The notes beneath the pieces are model-generated. The model made no database searches, had not been told where the DNA came from, and worked only from the letters and a program-made list of their open reading frames with translations. The translations under genes and the position numbers were made by a program. DNA of 53,483 bases from a bacterium (GTDB lineage: Bacteria; Patescibacteriota; Minisyncoccia; UBA6257; GWB1-50-10): assembly GCA_002686365.1 (NCBI GenBank), contig NZBZ01000020.1, positions 1 through 53,483 on the forward strand. The letters are read 5' to 3'. Below are positions 3,990-18,937 of this stretch, one piece after another (the stretch's first letter is position 1; each line of letters begins with the position of its first letter).

Positions 3990-4027
3990 CCCAATGTATC
4001 AGTGTACTAGTACACTGATACATTGGG
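3990..4027. repeat. 38-bp perfect palindrome CCCAATGTATCAGTGTACTAGTACACTGATACATTGGG
   Basis: The 36-bp core recurs exactly at 18074-18109. Confidence 0.95.
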
Positions 4028-4431
4028 AGTGGTTCGATTCTCGCAGACTGTAGATACACAAAAAGAGCATGCAAGCATACTCCTTTTGTGTTTACACTGA
4101 GCGAGCCTTCGACTTGGCTCAGGCCAAGGCGAAGCGAGTCGAAGTGTGCGGGATACGAGAATCGCCTACAAGTCGCTCGGTCTTCCGACCTCGCGCTCGC
4201 AGGCCGCCTGCCCTGGGCTTCGCTACGCCTTCGGCGTATAGCGTCGCCCGTCTTCACTGCTCGAACACAAGCAGTTGTGTTCTCGCTACGCTCCGACCCC
4301 GCGGTGCTCCTCGCCAATCGCTCGTCGCACATCGCTGCGGTCTTCGATCCCCCACGCACGCAAATTTATTTGCGTGCTCCACCAAAATACATGAAGCTGG
4401 AACTATAAAAGCTCCAGCTTCATGTGTTCAG
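4028..4431 (-). repeat. tRNA-Gly 3'-tail module (hairpins, antisense T-arm copies, degenerate 3'-end duplicate)
   Basis: Hairpin 4389-4424; TTCGATCCCCCACGCACGCA 4343-4362; degenerate 3'-end copy 4146-4164; second antisense copy 4033-4045. Confidence 0.75.
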
Positions 4432-6863: not shown

Positions 6864-7427
6864 GTGATAATAATGAAAGCAATACGAATCATTGATCCAA
6901 TATACTGGCTTCTCCGCCTGATTCTGCGAAACTTTATAAACGCCGAGTTAACAAAGGTAGAAAAAAGATTTGTACAAAATAATATTGACAAGCATAGAGG
7001 GGTAATATGGGTAAATATTATCGTTAGCGTATTTGTCTTTCTCGGCCTGAGTAATACGCCAGAGGATACTATCAGCCTCGTAATAACTTCACTCATAGCC
7101 CCTGTTATGGTTATGGGCGCAGCATGGTTTGCCATTTCTTTTGGCGGCATTCCACAAAAGCTTATCAATATAGCTATGTCTGTAACGTTCTGGATGTTCA
7201 CCGCTTTCGTTGTATCACTATCAGCAATGTTCATTGCAGTTGGTTTTGTAACAAACCCATACTTATGGCCCGCCCTTATCATAATTTATCTGGGCGCTCT
7301 ATTTAGCTGTATTATGTATGACACATCAGACGGATTAAAGGCAGGACTAGACGAGACTCAGCTCAAGCACTCCCGAGCCGCACTGGCCTACTACGAAAAA
7401 GAAGGAATACGACCTGAAGACGAATAG
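6864..7427 (+). CDS. Hypothetical integral membrane protein (~4 TM); likely ATG at 6873
   Basis: Four hydrophobic segments. Confidence 0.75.
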   Translation: MIIMKAIRIIDPIYWLLRLILRNFINAELTKVEKRFVQNNIDKHRGVIWVNIIVSVFVFLGLSNTPEDTISLVITSLIAPVMVMGAAWFAISFGGIPQKLINIAMSVTFWMFTAFVVSLSAMFIAVGFVTNPYLWPALIIIYLGALFSCIMYDTSDGLKAGLDETQLKHSRAALAYYEKEGIRPEDE

Positions 7428-7443
7428 ACCGCCACTCAACTTC

Positions 7444-7477
7444 AATCAAAAAACCGCACACTCGTGCGATTTTTTAA
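7444..7477. terminator. Bidirectional terminator AAAAAACCGCACACTCGTGCGATTTTTT
   Basis: Near-identical copy at 11788-11820 and half copy at 10918-10932. Confidence 0.8.
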
Positions 7478-7614
7478 TCAACTATCATAAAATGCTTGCC
7501 CCAGAAATTTGTCTGAAAGCAGGTACGCTTCCCGCACTGCTCAAATAAGGGAAGAAAGCTCAACGCGATAAGCACAATAAGAAGAATTAGTAAGAATAGA
7601 AGAATCTTTTTCAT
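7474..7614 (-). CDS. Small (46 aa) membrane-anchored/exported protein not in the ORF track: MKKILLFLLILLIVLIALSFLPLFEQCGKRTCFQTNFWGKHFMIVD
   Basis: Hand-translated; its ATG overlaps the TGA of the upstream GrpB gene (ATGA); classic MKK plus hydrophobic stretch. Confidence 0.65.
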   Translation of the reverse strand: MKKILLFLLILLIVLIALSFLPLFEQCGKRTCFQTNFWGKHFMIVD

Positions 7615-8153
7615 TGACTCCTTTTCCATTCGACAACTTTTTCTCTTAATTCGGTATTAAGATATTTGTCTTTTCCTTTGCGATACGAAATGTAATCATT
7701 GGGGAATTGTTTTATAAGCATAGACTTTATCCGTTCGTACCGCTTTATTTCTTGTGGGTGTGTTTTCAGATAATCCCTTTTATCTATGAATTCATCTATT
7801 TTAGAGTGACCAACAGGAAAAACATGGATATTTTCTAGTCGTTTCCCATTTTTTTCTCTGCAAAAAAACATTGATTCTTCTGCTATATAATTCTCTTTGT
7901 ACGAATATCCTAATTTTTCCATCTCAATACGTTCGTTTTTAATATCGTGCATGTTATGAACAATAACCAAAACGTCAATGATAGGCTTTGCTTTCATTCC
8001 CTTAATAGAAGTGCTCCCAACATGCTGGACTGATAGCAATTTATCGCCAAACACGTTCTGAATTGCCTTCTTAATTTGTAAAAATTTATTATTCCACGAT
8101 GGATTATAATCTTCTAGTTCGTATTCTTTATTTATGGTTCGGTAAGTAGCCAT
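7611..8153 (-). CDS. GrpB/UPF0157 family nucleotidyltransferase-fold protein
   Basis: HVGSTSIKGMKAKPIIDV, NIHVF, RDYLKTHP..Y..K..L..Y..GK. Confidence 0.9.
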   Translation of the reverse strand: MATYRTINKEYELEDYNPSWNNKFLQIKKAIQNVFGDKLLSVQHVGSTSIKGMKAKPIIDVLVIVHNMHDIKNERIEMEKLGYSYKENYIAEESMFFCREKNGKRLENIHVFPVGHSKIDEFIDKRDYLKTHPQEIKRYERIKSMLIKQFPNDYISYRKGKDKYLNTELREKVVEWKRSQ

Positions 8154-8223
8154 ATGTATTGAATTTATTATCCCATAATAACTATAGAAACAAAAAATTT
8201 CTTGTAAAACGAAGCGTGTAATT

Positions 8224-8276
8224 GTGTCAGGAGACTGCCTGTCCGCCTTGGGCGGAGACGCTATTAGAACCTGTTT
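8224..8276 (+). repeat. Array junction motif GTCAGG(A)GACTG-[CCTGTCCGCCTTGGGCGGA]-GACGCTATTAGAACCTGTTT
   Basis: 8257-8276 is identical to 10087-10106 (20 bp); related copy ends at 11242; partial copy near 8800. Confidence 0.8.
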
Positions 8277-8297
8277 GGTGAGTTAAATTTTAATATG

Positions 8298-8792
8298 TTA
8301 TCGGAAGTATTTTTCTAACACTTTAAAATAATCACTCCCATTATCAACTTCCTTGTAATTATTTTTATCTACCCACATGAATTTATCATGCTCATCACTT
8401 AATTTCAGTTCACCTGAAATATACCTACACTTAAATGCTACATAATACACCACCTTTCCATAATTCTCGTTGGTTTTAGGAACTTTGAAAAATTCGTGAT
8501 ACCACGAAGCAAATGGATCGCCAACCTCTATTTCAAGATTCGTCTCCTCCTTAACTTCTCTTTGTAACGAACGGATTAAGCTGGACGCGTCTCCATCTTT
8601 AGCTTCATCTTCCTGAATTTTTCCTCCAGGAAAGTCCAAGCCCTCAAAAGGGTCATTGAGAACCAAAATCTTTCCATCTTTTTCAATAAGAGCTTTTTGC
8701 CCAACACAAAGTAATGCATCATCTTTCATAGAGATAAAAATAACAGACTTTAGTCTGTTTCTCCACTTATAAAAAACCTCAACTCTAATCAC
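8298..8792 (-). CDS. NUDIX hydrolase
   Basis: FPGGKIQEDE(insert)...SLQREVKEETNL Nudix box; LSDEHD..W. Confidence 0.9.
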   Translation of the reverse strand: MIRVEVFYKWRNRLKSVIFISMKDDALLCVGQKALIEKDGKILVLNDPFEGLDFPGGKIQEDEAKDGDASSLIRSLQREVKEETNLEIEVGDPFASWYHEFFKVPKTNENYGKVVYYVAFKCRYISGELKLSDEHDKFMWVDKNNYKEVDNGSDYFKVLEKYFR

Positions 8793-8828
8793 AGATAGGC
8801 CTGTTTGGTGAATGTTTGATAGTGCAAT

Positions 8829-9695
8829 TTAAAGTCTCTGCACCTGCTCGCGTAGATCAAATCTAAGACGACATATGCCTTCTGCAGACGGATATGTTGT
8901 TTCATCAATACGATCACACAATGAAGGGTTGTTTAACTTCCAAGCCATGTCAGCTATGCATAAATCGTGTCGCGCTCCTCGCATTCGTTGACAATATGAT
9001 GCGCCCCCTAGACCTCCTCCAGTTATTTCCTGTGCCACATTCTTTGAAGATTGAGATATGCATTCATCAATCTTTCTCTCGTTTGTTGATAGTCCATCGA
9101 GTTCAAGTCTGCAGATACTAGAATCTTCTGTTATGCTTGCTGCCGCAGAAAGACAGGCAAAACTTAAGCCAGAATAACATTCTGAAAATGGTTCAGACGC
9201 GCAAGCACAAACATCAAGATCCCCTGTTTTTGCGGCCACCATCCCCCTGCACACAAAAGGAGTGATTGCTCCATAATGAGAAGCAACAAGACCAGGAATC
9301 TGGTCACAGGCGCCAACATTATTCTGCGCAAGAGCCTGCTGTACCGTCATTAACATCTCATCAAAAAGCATTATATGCTGTTCATCTGCTTTCTCTGATG
9401 AAGTATCTCTCATAATCCCTGAGGGAACCAAAATGAGAGCAGCTCCTAAAATAAAGGTGAGTGACACGTGAATAACTTTTTTGCTTTGGAAACGCCGCAA
9501 CGCAATAACCCCGACTACAATGAATAATACTATGACAAAAATAGGAAGTATAAAAAAGAAAAGAAGTCTTCCAGAATCTAAGAATCCAATACCACCTAGG
9601 TCACGCGTTGCCCTTTCCAATAAGAAAGAAAAAATAAAGTACGAGACAGAAATAACAACTGCAAACAGGAGAACCTTTTTCCATTCAAAAGACAT
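8829..9695 (-). CDS. Membrane-anchored protein with Cys-rich extracellular repeats (ORF track starts at 9716)
   Basis: 3 TM helices, then repeated C..i....C...A.....lC motifs; TG-c-TACAAT 6 nt before ATG 9695. Confidence 0.75.
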   Translation of the reverse strand: MSFEWKKVLLFAVVISVSYFIFSFLLERATRDLGGIGFLDSGRLLFFFILPIFVIVLFIVVGVIALRRFQSKKVIHVSLTFILGAALILVPSGIMRDTSSEKADEQHIMLFDEMLMTVQQALAQNNVGACDQIPGLVASHYGAITPFVCRGMVAAKTGDLDVCACASEPFSECYSGLSFACLSAAASITEDSSICRLELDGLSTNERKIDECISQSSKNVAQEITGGGLGGASYCQRMRGARHDLCIADMAWKLNNPSLCDRIDETTYPSAEGICRLRFDLREQVQRL

Positions 9696-9731
9696 ATTTC
9701 TATTGTAGCACATCAATTAAAAATCCCTCAA

Positions 9732-10105
9732 TTAATGTAGCCCCTCGTCGCCGCGGCTCCTCGGGATACTCGATTTTGAAACCAAAAACCTGCTCTCAAA
9801 AAAGCAGGTTTATTGGACAAAATCGGTGGGTGCCTGACGGGGATCCTTCTCCCCCGCCCCGATGATAAATGTCGGGGCTCCCCCGAAGCCACGGACTCGC
9901 ACCCCATCAAACAATGTAGCCCCTCGTCGTCCCGCTTTGGCGGGACTCGCTCGGGATACTCTTGTTTCTTACGAAATCAAAGATTTCGAGAAACAAGGTT
10001 CGCCAGAATTCCGTTCGATCCCCATACATCATAAACAAAAATAATCCCACAAATGCGGGACTATTTTTGCTTTGGGTCAGGGACTGGACGCTATTAGAAC
10101 CTGTT
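9732..10105. repeat. Structured spacer unit A of the tRNA-His-anchored array
   Basis: Ordered motifs shared with 10933-11242. Confidence 0.85.
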
Positions 10106-10204
10106 TACTAGCAATATATTGACATAATACAGAATATATGCTTTAATAGAGGAGGTTAGAAAAGGCATCGTACATACCAGTATCCAAGCGAGGAGGGCCA
10201 AAAC

Positions 10205-10858
10205 ATGGCCTCAGTAGACAGAGACGCGCTTCGTTCGTTCCTGCTCGGGAATGATGCTTCAGAAACCCTCGTCGCAGAGGCGATGGAGCATCTTGAGCAC
10301 TTCTTCGTGGCGGCAGAGGATGGAAAGTATCCGCTGAAGCCCGTTGGAGAAATTGATCTCGAGGTAGTGAAAGCTGCTATATCGAGATCGACGGGACAAG
10401 AAGTCGAAAAGGTTGTTCCGATCTCTCAAGCTCAACCGTTCCCCAGGCCGGAATGGATGAGCGAGGGGGTTCATGGCGCTATCCTCGATGATAGACTTGA
10501 AGACAGCCTCGGAGACAGCATCGAAAGAGACAGCCTCGAGGAAGGCTTCGAGAGCAGCTTTGGGGACGGTCTTAGGGACAAACTTGAGAGTGGCCTTAGA
10601 GACAGACTCGGGGACATCATCTGGCCCAGCATCGAGGACGGTGTCAGGGAGAGTCTCAAGAACATTCTCTGGACCGGTCTCGAGGGCCATTTCGGTGGCA
10701 GCTTCTGGGCCAATCTAGTTTATGCTTTAGAACTCGTTCTAGCTGGCGAAGAAGAGCAGGCGCAAACACTCTTCTCCCTCCTCGACGCCTGGGACGGAAT
10801 TCTCATCCTCGGCGAGAAGGAAGACGAATCAGGAGTCTGGATCATCCTCGTCGCCTGA
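10205..10858 (+). CDS. Hypothetical acidic protein with tetrapeptide-periodic repeat, GC-rich
   Basis: LEDS-LGDS..FESS-FGDG-LRDK-LESG-LRDR-LGDI periodicity; own TTGACA-17-TTTAAT promoter, GAGGAGG SD and terminator 10890-10916. Confidence 0.75.
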   Translation: MASVDRDALRSFLLGNDASETLVAEAMEHLEHFFVAAEDGKYPLKPVGEIDLEVVKAAISRSTGQEVEKVVPISQAQPFPRPEWMSEGVHGAILDDRLEDSLGDSIERDSLEEGFESSFGDGLRDKLESGLRDRLGDIIWPSIEDGVRESLKNILWTGLEGHFGGSFWANLVYALELVLAGEEEQAQTLFSLLDAWDGILILGEKEDESGVWIILVA

Positions 10859-10932
10859 CACAACGTCACAACATACGTCACGCATCACAGGCTCACCTCG
10901 GGTGGGCCGTTTTATTTCAAAAAATCGCACAC

Positions 10933-11242
10933 TTAATGTAGCCCCTCGTCGCCCCGCCTTGGCGGGGCTCGCTCGGGACACTCAACTTTGTAACCAAAAA
11001 ACAGCTAATCCACGTTAGCTGTTTTTTGGACAAAGTTGGTGGGTGCCTGACGGGGATCCTTCTCCTCCAAAATTTCAAGGGACTGAAATTTCTCCTCCGA
11101 AGCCACTGACTCGCGCTTTCTCCCCGCTAAGCGGGGCGCGCGAGTTCAGTTCGATCCCCATACATCTTAAACAAAAACAGCAGGACACAAGGCCCAGCTG
11201 TTTTTGCTTTGGGTCAGGGACTGGACGACGTTAGAACCTGTT
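10933..11242. repeat. Structured spacer unit B of the tRNA-His-anchored array
   Basis: Same motif order as unit A with sequence-variable hairpins. Confidence 0.85.
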
Positions 11243-11259
11243 GTGTATAATGAATTCAT

Positions 11260-11766
11260 ATGAAAAATCAAAAAGGTTCAGTGGGGATAGTCGTTTTAAT
11301 CGTAATCGCAGTAGTTGTTGTGTCTGGCGGGTATATGCTGTACCAGAGGAATGGGGACGATACTGGCACGAAAGAGGAAAGCACATCTGTAGAAGGAGTA
11401 GGGGGAACCGAATCTTCAAGTATCTCTAGATTAGATTCTCTAGCGGGGGTGCCGTTCGAAGAAGCTTTGCAAAAAGCAAAGGAGATTTCTTTGCTTATTG
11501 TGAAAGAAGAATCGCTTGGTCAAGTTGACTGCCCAGAGGTGTCGACTGATATCTTTACGTCTCAAAATGATGGTGCAAATAAAGCATGGGCTGTATATGT
11601 TATTTCTGAAAATTGTAGGGATGATTCCATTGGAGCAATTCGGGAAGAACGACTTATGATGTTTGATGAAGAATCAGGATGGGCATTACGTGATGCACAC
11701 GCAAGCAAGCAGAGATGTCATGTGGGAAGAGGGCACCAAGACTTTTCCAACGAACTATGTAACTAG
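11260..11766 (+). CDS. Exported protein with prepilin-like N-terminus (QKG/S + hydrophobic helix) and C-terminal C..GRGHQDFS.E.C motif
   Basis: Sequence motifs; lacks the canonical E+5 of type IV pilins. Confidence 0.7.
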   Translation: MKNQKGSVGIVVLIVIAVVVVSGGYMLYQRNGDDTGTKEESTSVEGVGGTESSSISRLDSLAGVPFEEALQKAKEISLLIVKEESLGQVDCPEVSTDIFTSQNDGANKAWAVYVISENCRDDSIGAIREERLMMFDEESGWALRDAHASKQRCHVGRGHQDFSNELCN

Positions 11767-11787
11767 ACGAAAAAAAGAAAAAGACTC

Positions 11788-12021
11788 AATCAAAAAATCG
11801 CACACCTGTGCGATTTTTTAGCCAGGGTGCCTGACGGGAATCTCACGTCATCCCTCACAAAGTTCGGGACTCCCTAAAACCCCTCGGTTTTAGTCCGCTC
11901 GCCTTCGGCGAGCTTTTCCGCCACGGGGAAACCCAGGTTTCCCCGACCCCTTTCCCGTTCGAGCCCCGTCACAGTAGCATAAATGAAAAATGCCAGCACA
12001 TAAGTGCTGACAATTTTCATT
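11788..12021 (-). repeat. tRNA-His 3'-tail module plus terminator
   Basis: Hairpin, antisense T-arm 11957-11970, core 11870-11913 shared with the Arg module, His-type 3'-end copy at ~11824-11842. Confidence 0.8.
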
Positions 12022-12023
12022 TG

Positions 12024-12096
12024 GGCGATCGACGGGACTCGAACCCGCAACACCGAGCACCACAAGCTCGTGCTCTACCATTGAGCTACGACCGCC
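12024..12096 (-). tRNA. tRNA-His(GTG) with encoded G-1
   Basis: Acceptor GCGGTCG/CGATCGC, G-1:C73, anticodon loop TT-GTG-GT. Confidence 0.95.
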
Positions 12097-12161
12097 ATAC
12101 ATTGTCCTCAGACAAACTCACAATACGCAATTAAAGCGTTTAGGTCAATTAGGAGCCCTTA

Positions 12162-12584
12162 CTACGCATTTCCCTGCGGGATATGTCCCTCCCGCCTTTG
12201 CTTCTTTTTATCTCCAATAATCTTCTTTTCTCGTATCCTGTCATCTTCAGCGCTCAAAGGCGGCTCATTTGGAATTCGCACAGGAGGTTCTTTAATTGCC
12301 TCATTTATCATAGATGCGAGACGCTCCAAGGCCTTCTCTCTGTTCTCCTCCTGGTACCGTGTCTCCTGATCCTCCACCCAGAGCTCATCTTCCTTATTTA
12401 CATGATGAGCAAGTTTCTCCCGAAGCCGCCGTTTCTCTAGAGGCTCCAAAGGCAGATCATCAACGCTCACCCACATATGCACCTTTGTGGAACGATGATC
12501 CTTGTTCTGACCCCCAGGCCCATGCGAACGAGAAGCCTTAAACTCAACCTTCTCTCCTAGTGTGTGTATATCTATATGAGTCAT
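12162..12584 (-). CDS. arfB: Alternative ribosome-rescue peptidyl-tRNA hydrolase ArfB (YaeJ)
   Basis: SRSHGPGGQN (GGQ) motif, QETRYQEEN, basic C-terminal tail. Confidence 0.9.
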   Translation of the reverse strand: MTHIDIHTLGEKVEFKASRSHGPGGQNKDHRSTKVHMWVSVDDLPLEPLEKRRLREKLAHHVNKEDELWVEDQETRYQEENREKALERLASMINEAIKEPPVRIPNEPPLSAEDDRIREKKIIGDKKKQRREGHIPQGNA

Positions 12585-17896: not shown

Positions 17897-18125
17897 TTAG
17901 TACACAAAGGAGGCGTAATGCGCCTCCTTTGTGTATATATTATGAGAGGGAATCGAAGGGAACCCCGCCGCTCGCATTGCGAGGAGGAGGCGGGGTCCCA
18001 GGCCGCGGAGGAAAGATTTGCTTTAGCAAATCTTGTGGGAGCGGGATTCCCTCCCGCGGCACAAATAAAATTTCCAATGTATCAGTGTACTAGTACACTG
18101 ATACATTGGGATGAGGGGAGGGAGT
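17897..18125 (+). repeat. tRNA-Phe 3'-tail module
   Basis: 15-bp hairpin 17901-17935; antisense T-arm 17944-17957; exact 18-bp 3'-end duplicate 18045-18062; palindrome 18074-18109; second antisense 18116-18125. Confidence 0.85.
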
Positions 18126-18743: not shown

Positions 18744-18937
18744 GCATCCCCGGCAGGAATCAAACGTCGCTCATATTCATTCGCTCCCTCAAAACCCTCG
18801 GTTTTGAGTCCGCTCGCTTCGCTCGCTCATTCCAACACGGAGGGGGCCCGGCAGCTCCCCCTCCGACCCACCCCCTCGTTCGAGTCCTGGCGGGAAAAAC
18901 AATACAGCCAAGATAAAACTCGGCTGTATTGTTTCAG
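18744..18937 (-). repeat. tRNA-Arg 3'-tail module
   Basis: Hairpin 18895-18936; antisense T-arm 18878-18894; core 18784-18826 shared with the His module; 15-bp exact 3'-end duplicate 18744-18758. Confidence 0.85.

Follow-up and report, generated by a model that had tools for sequence, protein, structure and literature searches.

A strain-variable accessory-gene island at the tRNA-His gene of a patescibacterial genome, probably assembled by insertion of small recombinase-less cassettes

Introduction

How do bacteria with very small genomes gain accessory genes? In the ultra-small bacteria of the candidate phyla radiation (CPR), whose genomes of about 0.5-1 Mb have few recognisable mobile elements, this process is poorly understood. 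The question is raised here by a locus of the Patescibacteriota (assembly GCA_002686365.1, contig NZBZ01000020.1), where genes of unrelated function alternate with similar spacers behind a tRNA-His gene. We analysed the first 53.5 kb of this 120-kb contig (53,483 nt, hereafter the window), which belongs to a genome of 888 kb in 21 contigs that is 91.5% complete (G000). Contigs identical or nearly identical to the window come from marine metagenomes, Tara Oceans included. An initial annotation, made from the letters of the window, had read positions 7,444 to 12,096 as an integron-like or tandem-accretion array that captures genes at the tRNA-His 3' end. We compared the locus with 96 genomes of the family, representing 43 genera (G-numbers), and with other loci and metagenome contigs (L-numbers). 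Tandem accretion at tRNA-His and cargo turnover are supported, but an integron-type system is not, since IntI is absent and the site is a ~35-mer that is conserved in sequence and is not a palindrome. Our reading, to which we assign a probability of about 0.6, is that the locus is a strain-variable accessory-gene island produced by repeated site-specific insertion of small cassettes, themselves devoid of a recombinase, at the 3' end of tRNA-His.

Results

A short junction site recurs behind tRNA-His

The informative strand of the island is the minus strand, i.e. the strand of the tRNA, and the junction site (named M3) and the spacers are read on that strand. The island is delimited and punctuated by the following features:

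12023..12095, minus strand: tRNA-His(GUG), the anchor of the island (ARAGORN and Rfam tRNA, 64.4 bits).
11981..12022, minus strand: terminator-like hairpin that immediately follows tRNA-His (inverted repeat I2, arms of 19 nt, 89% complementary; also in the terminator scan).
11786..11820, no strand assigned: bidirectional terminator T2, a direct repeat of T1 (repeat family D13, 91% over 35 nt).
11210..11242, minus strand: M3 copy B (AACAGGTTCTAACGTCGTCCAGTCCCTGACCCA on the minus strand; nhmmer, 32 bits).
10073..10105, minus strand: M3 copy A (nhmmer, 32.6 bits).
8800..8811, minus strand: 12-nt direct repeat TCACCAAACAGG, outer edge of a degenerate M3 upstream of the NUDIX gene (read from the sequence; partner at 8270-8281).
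8226..8281, minus strand: M3 copy G, with an inserted 19-nt hairpin and including the 12-nt repeat 8270-8281 (pattern match).
7442..7476, no strand assigned: terminator T1, repeated directly as T2, at the far limit of the island (D13; terminator scan).

The near-identical terminators said to bracket the region are indeed a 35-nt direct repeat with 91% identity (7442-7476 and 11786-11820). Between them, GACGNNNTTAGAACCTGTT occurs three times in the window (8257, 10087 and 11224), always on the plus strand, while shuffled windows gave 0.00 matches. The similarity between spacers had been described as stopping sharply after ...TTAGAACCTGTT; it does, but at 8275 the shared sequence extends to ...TGGTGA (8281). 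The 12-mer that ends at 8281 recurs at 8800-8811, and a 12-nt direct repeat thus flanks the NUDIX gene. On the tRNA strand, the consensus of M3 is AAACAGGTTCTAAC-a-TCgTCCA, followed by 6-7 variable nucleotides and then by GGAGC or GACCC. The left ~22 nt (AAACAGGTTCTAAC-N-TCGTCC) are conserved across genomes and resemble a degenerate T-arm. The resemblance is mimicry only: we rejected M3 as a tRNA fragment because neither the T-stem nor the anticodon-stem pairing is kept.

M3 is not confined to this genome. Its 17-base pattern, with at most two mismatches, is present in 18 of the 96 family genomes and in 17 of the 43 genera, when the reversed control gives about 0. Several genomes have co-oriented arrays of M3 with the spacing of one gene (500-900 nt): four and eight copies in G013, three in G003 and two in G033. 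Among species representatives it occurs in more than 119 stretches, mostly of Patescibacteria, and nhmmer confirmed 74 of 80 loci. The 19-mer scan covered 596 Gb, for which about 100 chance matches are expected, and single matches need care. M3-like sites outside Patescibacteria (L154, L140, L161 and L157) were found in an Acidobacteria single-cell genome, a Zixibacteria chromosome, a 1.3-Mb Omnitrophota contig with three copies and a Laspinema isolate. In one Colwellbacteria array (L143), M3 copies come in pairs 54 nt apart (5307/5361, 6266/6319 and 7156/7209). A search of the literature by topic and by site sequence found no description of this site.

The right end of M3 ties it to tRNA genes. 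The commonest tRNAs within 8 kb of the site are Asn (7), Gln (6) and His (4), and 16 of 17 lie upstream of M3 in the same orientation. In Asn-, Gln- and His-anchored arrays, the right ~10 nt of M3 match the acceptor 3' strand of the anchoring tRNA: the site ends in ...GGGGAGC behind tRNA-Asn, in ...GACCCGCAGC (CGCAGC) behind tRNA-Gln, in ...CCGACCC behind tRNA-His, and in ...GACCACCT where the tRNA-His is an unusual one ending in CACCT. The copies of the window end in ...CCCTGACCCA (...GACCCA), i.e. they are of the His type. The proposal that the array grows from the tRNA-His 3' end is supported in that the junction site is anchored there and copies the acceptor end.

We considered other identities for M3. 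It is unlike the canonical bacterial dif site, a scan of the genome for dif-like palindromes gave weak candidates of which none is M3-like, and no Xer gene lies near the arrays. A resemblance to phage promoters of the T7/T3 type (CCACTAGGGGAG) is restricted to the G013 copies and is not conserved, and a sigma-70 promoter with M3 as the -35 element (TGGACG-18-TATAAT) fits only the gene encoding the 168-aa protein. An alignment of 32 copies (32-nt consensus) showed no consensus structure on either strand, and no protein family recurs beside M3 (within ~8 kb) in more than six of about 95 loci. In five loci (L044, L104, L240 in G038, L239 in G065 and L030), the M3 core is present in an inverted copy (GGACGTTAGAACyTnT) directly behind the terminator of the anchor tRNA, so that the first cassette is bracketed by inverted GTTAGAACCTGTTT / AAACAGGTTCTAAC. 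This inverted copy may be the other half of a docking site. It was not seen behind tRNA-His in the window.

Cargo is exchanged at the junctions in natural populations

Turnover of cargo at these junctions, as expected of a gene-capture array, is seen in marine contigs in which a different gene replaces the Cys-rich and NUDIX genes exactly at M3. Between 8281 and 7302 (M3, GrpB, T1 and the start of the flank), three contigs from three samples (L096, L097 and L098) match the window at 100% identity; beyond 8281 they are unrelated to it and encode a different protein of 183 aa. Another contig (L100) has the remainder of this alternative array: the gene of the 217-aa protein (91% identity), M3-A joined directly to the CCGATTTTG... 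segment, which comprises a hairpin and motif 2, a small recurrent motif described below (95%), the gene of the 183-aa protein, and TCACCAAACA... There is no tail module between M3-A and the CCGATTTTG... segment. The swap of cargo between strains begins at the outer end of this segment (9732-9825 in the window), over which L100 is 95% identical before it diverges. The Cys-rich and NUDIX genes on the one hand, and the 183-aa gene on the other, are alternative contents between the same conserved ends. Both types of array occur in a single sample (ERZ11848503).

The jump in identity from 91-95% to 100% across M3 marks a recombination breakpoint. The GrpB cassette, T1 and flank (7302-8281) are 100% identical between strains whose adjoining island DNA is only 91-95% identical (L096-L098 and L100), a pattern that points to a recent exchange of this segment between strains.

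Other comparisons also place variation at M3. Two contigs (L075 and L077) lack the tail part of the second spacer (10861-11201) and have a simple terminator instead, with the break exactly at the inner end of M3-B. Elsewhere, L137 has the arrangement A-M3-B-M3-C and L145 the arrangement A-M3-C, i.e. a clean insertion or deletion of one cassette. L136 and L170 share only the upstream side of an M3, and L103 and L172 only the downstream side, which is what a pivot site predicts. Mapping of the crossover from these last three comparisons (L137/L145, L136/L170 and L103/L172) gave ambiguous results.

The spacers are composites of separate elements

Two of the spacers, unit A (9732-10105) and unit B (10933-11242), carry the same motifs in the same order, as first noted (repeat families D2, D4-D7 and D9-D12, 83-100% identity per block). 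Their hairpins differ in sequence and keep their pairing (10035-10069 vs 11172-11206, 9786-9811 vs 10994-11029, and helix P2 of the tail module), the differences being compensatory changes. On the tRNA strand, the parts of a spacer are the ~35-nt M3, a terminator hairpin, a structured module of ~110 nt that ends in a copy of the tRNA-His 3' end (CCCCGTCAGGCACCCA), and a second hairpin followed by motif 2. Beyond M3, the window contains:

11825..11975, minus strand: class II tail of tRNA-His, with antisense T-arm (~11958-11975), structured core and 3'-end copy X1 (11825-11842, CCCGTCAGGCACCC); the core is shared within the genome.
11050..11206, minus strand: trailer B, composed of a terminator hairpin (11172-11206) and, at 11050-11161, a class I tail module with the His-type 3'-end copy X2 (11041-11058) at its end (covariance model R1).
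10933..11035, minus strand: post-X hairpin (10994-11029) and motif 2 (~10933-10984), ending in the 3' half of a terminator (10920-10933) (inverted repeat I7, 15-nt perfect arms; D2, D4).
9826..10069, minus strand: trailer A, a hairpin (10035-10069), a degenerate class I tail, a nested motif-2 copy (~9911-9965) and 3'-end copy X3 (9828-9845) (R1; D2, D4, D12).
9732..9825, minus strand: post-X hairpin (9786-9811) and motif-2 copy (~9732-9775) (repeat search, terminator scan).

A reading of the spacers of 310-375 nt as recombination sites in their entirety does not hold: only the ~35-nt M3 end is the recurrent cassette junction, and the remainder is a tRNA-tail module with hairpins. Tail modules without any cargo lie behind many tRNAs in 36 of the 96 related genomes. 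From strain to strain, their presence or absence is independent of cargo. The spacers are thus composites of elements that recur separately.

About a dozen tRNAs of G000 carry such tails, in which a hairpin and an antisense T-arm precede the core and a second copy of the tRNA 3' end follows it. The cores fall into three unrelated classes: class I behind tRNA-Cys, -Phe, -Ser and, in a short form, -Pro; class II behind -Ala, -Met, -His and -Arg(tct); and class III behind -Arg(tcg) and -Gly. Examples are found in the window at 3990-4430, 17897-18060 and 18750-18936, and on other contigs at C1:90046-90260, C2:2491-2680 and C4:3900-4119. In relatives, the class I core is found behind tRNA-Leu, -Gly, -Ser, -His, -Asp, -Glu, -Gln, -Trp, -Val, -Pro, -Arg and -Met; in every case an antisense of the T-loop and T-stem of that tRNA comes before the core and a copy of the tRNA 3' end after it. 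An alignment of 18 class I modules has 35 base pairs, 31 of them with compensatory changes, which form the helices P1/P1a and P2, a long-range CUUC/GAAG helix and a closing helix in which the antisense arm pairs with the end copy. On the tRNA strand, G-U pairs are about three times commoner than A-C. The covariance model built for this class (R1) finds it in 36 of the 96 genomes and 20 of the 43 genera. At least three class I modules stand in tandem, with a period of 163 nt, behind tRNA-Met in G001 (L038/L040, G001:C10:6300-6600). We found no publication on tRNA-tail modules of Patescibacteria. With Rfam, only tRNAs reach the gathering threshold and nothing credible appears at E-values up to 10 in 7300-12300. 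ARAGORN finds nothing at the units, and we rejected their identification as transfer-messenger RNA (tmRNA) or permuted tRNA.

Both units contain class I members. In the window, R1 scores 109.3 bits at unit B (E-value 4e-30, full model), 105 bits at the tRNA-Phe tail and 38 bits at unit A. Unit A is a decayed copy: its match (9837-9907) has lost P1, and a motif-2 copy is nested inside the module. Both units adjoin M3 rather than a tRNA, and their antisense GGGGATCGAAC matches the T-arm of G057-type tRNA-His, not the resident GTTCGAGTCCC. More precisely, the tRNA-His to which their arms correspond has GTTCGATCCCC as T-arm and CAGGCACCC as acceptor end, the latter being the common one in the family but not that of the resident gene. 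The core of unit B is 82-83% identical to modules of another genus (g2, genome G001) and only 42-51% identical to the class I modules of this genome. Since unit B is of a foreign type, at least part of the array, junction included, was probably imported horizontally. The non-resident arms and the position behind M3 would be explained by import and displacement of the modules.

The resident tRNA-His has its own tail, of class II, whose core (GAAAGGGGTCGGGGAAAC...GAGCGACGTGAGATTCC) also follows tRNA-Ala, -Met and -Arg(tct) in this genome. Its antisense arm is 1 nt off the resident T-arm, and X1 has the acceptor end typical of tRNA-His in the family, not that of the resident gene. The acceptor stem of the latter is GCGGTCG/CGATCGC, vs GTGCCT(G/A)/(C/T)AGGCAC in the X1-X3 copies (11825-11842, 11041-11058 and 9828-9845) and in the tRNA-His of G038, G049 and G065. 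Judging from these stems, the tails seem to predate the present form of the tRNA-His gene, which would later have been replaced or have co-evolved on its two strands.

Motif 2 forms a small hairpin with a symmetric purine-rich internal loop, where tandem G-A pairs are possible (minus strand: CCCGAGCGAG-[GC hairpin]-CGACGAGGGG). It occurs three times in the window (9732-9775, 9911-9965 and 10933-10984), once nested in helix P1 of a tail module, and also in L020, L037, L039 and L041; in G001, G080 and G081 it lies near tRNAs. It behaves like a separate small insertion element or a protein-binding RNA motif.

Empty and occupied tRNA-His sites in relatives

The order of a VTT-domain gene, an ArfB-like gene and tRNA-His is kept in four genera (among them those of G038, G049 and G057). 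Comparison of the tRNA-His locus across related genera revealed both empty and occupied sites:

G057, empty: tRNA-His, hairpin and class I tail, with no insertion.
G065, occupied: tRNA-His, gene of a 569-aa protein, M3 ending in GGCACCCA, hairpin, class I tail.
G049, occupied: tRNA-His, gene of a 277-aa protein, M3, hairpin, cognate class II tail.
G038, occupied: tRNA-His, gene of a 218-aa protein, M3.

In G065, the antisense arm (GGGGGTCGAAC) and the end copy (GACCCCCGTCAGGCACCCA) of the tail match its own tRNA-His. The simplest reading of this comparison, which is between genera and not between isogenic strains, is that the cassette enters between the tRNA 3' end and the trailer, and that the trailer then comes to lie beyond the distal junction. 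The layout of units A and B is exactly that of an occupied site (M3, hairpin, tail).

These observations suggest how the island may have been built. In this family, tRNAs are often followed by a terminator hairpin and a tail of ~110-150 nt that would be closed by the antisense T-arm and that ends in a second copy of the tRNA 3' end. A cassette inserted between tRNA-His and its trailer would move the trailer to the far junction, right behind M3, as the empty and occupied sites of relatives suggest. Units A and B would then be two displaced trailers, each probably invaded later by the small hairpin motif. The enzyme would act in trans.

Search for a recombinase

As initially proposed, no recombinase is encoded locally in the window. 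Genes resembling Xer or IntI gave no tblastn match in about 95 M3 loci or in the genome itself. A large serine recombinase gene lies ~150 nt from M3 in L154, the Acidobacteria single-cell genome, and ~1.3 kb from it in L170. Among M3-bearing genomes of the family, such genes number six to seven in G013, four in G001, two in G031 and one in G003, and none occurs in G000, G033, G073 and G049. In G031:C1 (L235), M3 is ~12 kb from a serine recombinase gene that adjoins tRNA-Met. Over the ~12.4 kb from tRNA-Met to M3 (G031:C1:1-18000), this locus encodes the large serine recombinase of 542 aa, whose 3' end overlaps an antisense tRNA-Met, and, between the recombinase and M3, a cluster of three genes (821, 379 and 489 aa) whose sizes point to a type I restriction-modification system. 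The best candidate for the enzyme is a large serine recombinase, but only as a lead, because other M3-bearing genomes have none. As the 91.5%-complete genome contains no large serine recombinase, the array may be frozen now or may be served by an incoming element.

Cargo genes

The cargo of the window consists of the following genes:

11260..11766, plus strand: 168-aa protein with an N-terminal hydrophobic segment, no Pfam family (Pfam search).
10205..10858, plus strand: 217-aa acidic protein with internal 12-nt-periodic repeats (D1, D3), no Pfam family.
8829..9716, minus strand: 295-aa membrane protein, Cys-rich in its C-terminal part, without a significant Pfam family (Pfam search).
8298..8792, minus strand: NUDIX hydrolase (PF00293, E-value 3.7e-10).
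7474..8153, minus strand: GrpB (7611-8153; PF04229, E-value 1.9e-41) and a hydrophobic open reading frame of 51 aa (7474-7629).

The assignments of GrpB and NUDIX made initially stand, but "pilin-like" lacks support, as the 168-aa protein has only an N-terminal hydrophobic segment. The search of Pfam gave no family for the 295-, 217- and 168-aa proteins, and an exact-protein look-up of the left flank gene gave no record. The 5' region of the 168-aa gene resembles that of the 183-aa gene of the alternative strains. In the gene of the 217-aa protein, which L100 has at 91% identity, the 12-nt-periodic repeats (10470-10640) encode tetrads of the L(G/R/E)D type; several metagenome contigs break off where this gene begins or within the repeated units that flank it. 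G013 has another NUDIX gene in one of its M3 arrays. Only 15 of the 96 family genomes contain GrpB. In the other 14, no M3 lies within 1.5 kb of it, and hence there is no conservation at the level of the cassette at that distance. In other genomes, the cargo or neighbours of M3 have the appearance, from reading of their N-terminal sequences, of a reverse-transcriptase-like protein (L113, 2131-3282), a GIY-YIG nuclease (L173, 4562-4909) and possibly an NYN/PIN-like nuclease (L171, 7184-7846).

Discussion

Weighing the explanations

Several observations weigh against repeated site-specific insertion at tRNA-His. No tyrosine or serine recombinase was found in this 91.5%-complete genome, nor any match to PF00589 in its 888 kb, and in about 95 M3 loci no recombinase lies within ~8 kb of the site, except the large serine recombinases of L154 and L170. 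M3 has neither dyad symmetry nor a conserved fold, which is unusual for the core sites of known recombinases, and breakpoints occur at both of its edges. The arrays of G013 have no tRNA within 10-16 kb. In the window, the site upstream of the NUDIX cassette has only 12 nt in common with M3, and GrpB lies beyond the last M3, leaving a far end that is unexplained and marked only by the 35-nt terminator repeat. Finally, two trailers (A and B) exceed what simple serial insertion at one tRNA would give, and call for imported junctions or duplication.

The main rival is homologous recombination between strains, which would exchange cassettes by crossing over in the repeated spacers (M3, trailers and terminators), as has been proposed for promoter/stem-loop cassettes of T4-type phages, without a dedicated recombinase or attachment (att) site. 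It agrees with the absence of a recombinase from the genome and from the immediate vicinity of the arrays, and with the 35-nt terminator repeat that brackets the island. It also accounts for boundaries of the swap that coincide with the outer ends of a whole conserved unit (the end of motif 2 on one side and M3 on the other), and for a variant of unit B that is a replacement by a diverged segment and not a clean insertion or deletion. Yet in arrays without trailers (G013 and L176) the junction is M3 alone, whose ~35 nt are very short for such exchanges, and M3 alone bounds the insertion or deletion of L137/L145. Nor would shuffling of this kind be expected to keep the left arm of M3 across classes, and even phyla, amid unrelated flanks, to make its right arm track the anchor tRNA, or to leave arrays strictly co-oriented and anchored at tRNAs. 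We consider it unlikely as the full explanation, although such recombination may well contribute to the mosaic here. Another possibility is that the units are functional RNA genes, i.e. tRNA-linked noncoding RNAs duplicated in place that regulate their neighbours or are co-transcribed with them, the cargo being chromosomal content subject to ordinary insertions and deletions. The strong covariation of class I, the excess of G-U over A-C pairs on the tRNA strand, which favours an RNA made from that strand, the conservation of the modules in 20 of 43 genera and the terminators that flank the units all speak for RNA genes of some kind. However, unit A has decayed (P1 is destroyed and a motif is nested inside it), co-occurring strains do without the modules, and the arms match a non-resident type of tRNA-His. 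Elsewhere the same modules sit behind tRNAs and not beside cargo, and the cargo varies between strains and genera. This makes RNA genes an improbable account of the island.

We give still less credit to the idea that the array is the remnant of a classical integron, a cluster of attC sites lacking the integron integrase (CALIN) with divergent attC sites. Cassettes of single co-oriented genes, accessory cargo and the lack of a local integrase are all features of CALINs, and GTTAGAA within M3 resembles the GTTRRRY core. But M3 has no inverse-core partner within 130 nt and no conserved hairpin, it is conserved in sequence across phyla as attC sites are not, and it copies a tRNA end. The cassettes have their own promoters and terminators, their genes are mostly downstream of the site, and a search of the genome and of the surroundings of about 95 M3 loci gave no tyrosine recombinase. 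A remnant of this sort is thus very improbable.

Comparison with known systems

Integrons encode at the head of the array the integrase IntI, a tyrosine recombinase with an extra domain of its own. Their attC sites are imperfect palindromes with an inverse core (RYYYAAC) and a core (GTTRRRY), and are conserved in fold rather than in sequence. Integrons and CALINs share with the island co-oriented arrays of one-gene cassettes, a repeated site, gain and loss between strains and, for CALINs, the local absence of the recombinase. Unlike them, the island has no IntI, its site is a non-palindromic ~35-mer defined by sequence and not a folded attC, it is anchored at a tRNA end instead of attI, and its cassettes have their own promoters and terminators.

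The staphylococcal cassette chromosome (SCC) is inserted by Ccr large serine recombinases at the 3' end of rlmH, serially, with short direct repeats of the target end, and some elements have no recombinase. The island resembles SCC in the serial insertion at one site, in the short target-end repeats between stacked elements and in recombinase-less members that depend on others; it differs in having a tRNA end as target and not a protein gene, in its much smaller elements, and in that a serine recombinase is only a lead. The att sites of large serine recombinases span ~40-50 bp, with inverted half-sites around a central dinucleotide.

Smaller modules offer other parallels. The promoter/stem-loop (PeSL) mobile regulatory cassettes of T4-type phages shuffle by homologous recombination between promoter-terminator repeats, and the pdif modules of Acinetobacter use paired, inverted Xer sites. 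Like the cassettes of the island, both are small gene modules that are shuffled among genomes and have short repeated regulatory or recombination sequences at their borders. M3, in contrast, is single, co-oriented and tRNA-derived, and is not like the canonical bacterial dif. As to the tRNA-tail modules of Patescibacteria, units A and B have their constituents (antisense T-arm, four-helix core and duplicated tRNA 3' end), but they follow an M3 junction and not a tRNA, and their arms are of a non-resident tRNA-His type.

Integrative islands of the type that encodes an integrase next to one att site can accrete in tandem. Such islands at tRNA or tmRNA genes, for instance those specific to ssrA in Dehalococcoides (PMC3146451), are inserted by integrases at a tRNA-type 3' end that is repeated at each junction, stack outward, and have strain-variable cargo, as here. 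In the present island, however, each unit is a single gene (0.5-1.2 kb) and brings no integrase, the site consists of a 22-nt arm and ~10 nt of tRNA end, one arm serves tRNA-Asn, -Gln and -His, and displaced structured tRNA trailers mark the junctions. The closest known systems are thus the tandem accretion of integrative islands at tRNA or tmRNA genes and stacked SCC elements, and the likeness to integrons is one of outcome only.

Implications

Together with the population data, the locus shows a compact system of cassettes in which single genes are swapped at a defined site of ~35 nt that is linked to tRNA ends. The combination of AAACAGGTTCTAAC-N-TCGTCC with a copy of a tRNA end is a signature with which flexible genes can be mapped in metagenome-assembled genomes and the recombinase traced. 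Should this enzyme be identified, a recombinase with a site that can partly be rewritten to fit a tRNA end would be of practical interest. Displaced trailers explain why structured tRNA-tail RNAs occur far from tRNAs, which matters when such RNAs are annotated or used as markers.

More tentatively, and with odds that we place below even, the observations may reflect a gene-capture platform, distinct from integrons, in Patescibacteria and some other small-celled lineages. In such a platform, recombinase-less cassettes of one gene would dock at the 3' ends of tRNA-Asn, -Gln and -His by means of a T-arm-like arm of 22 nt and ~10 nt rewritten to the local tRNA end, with an enzyme provided in trans, maybe by a large serine recombinase carried on larger elements. 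The hitherto undescribed tail modules would travel with the junctions, maybe addressed by base pairing with T-loops. This could then be the main route by which these minimal genomes gain genes.

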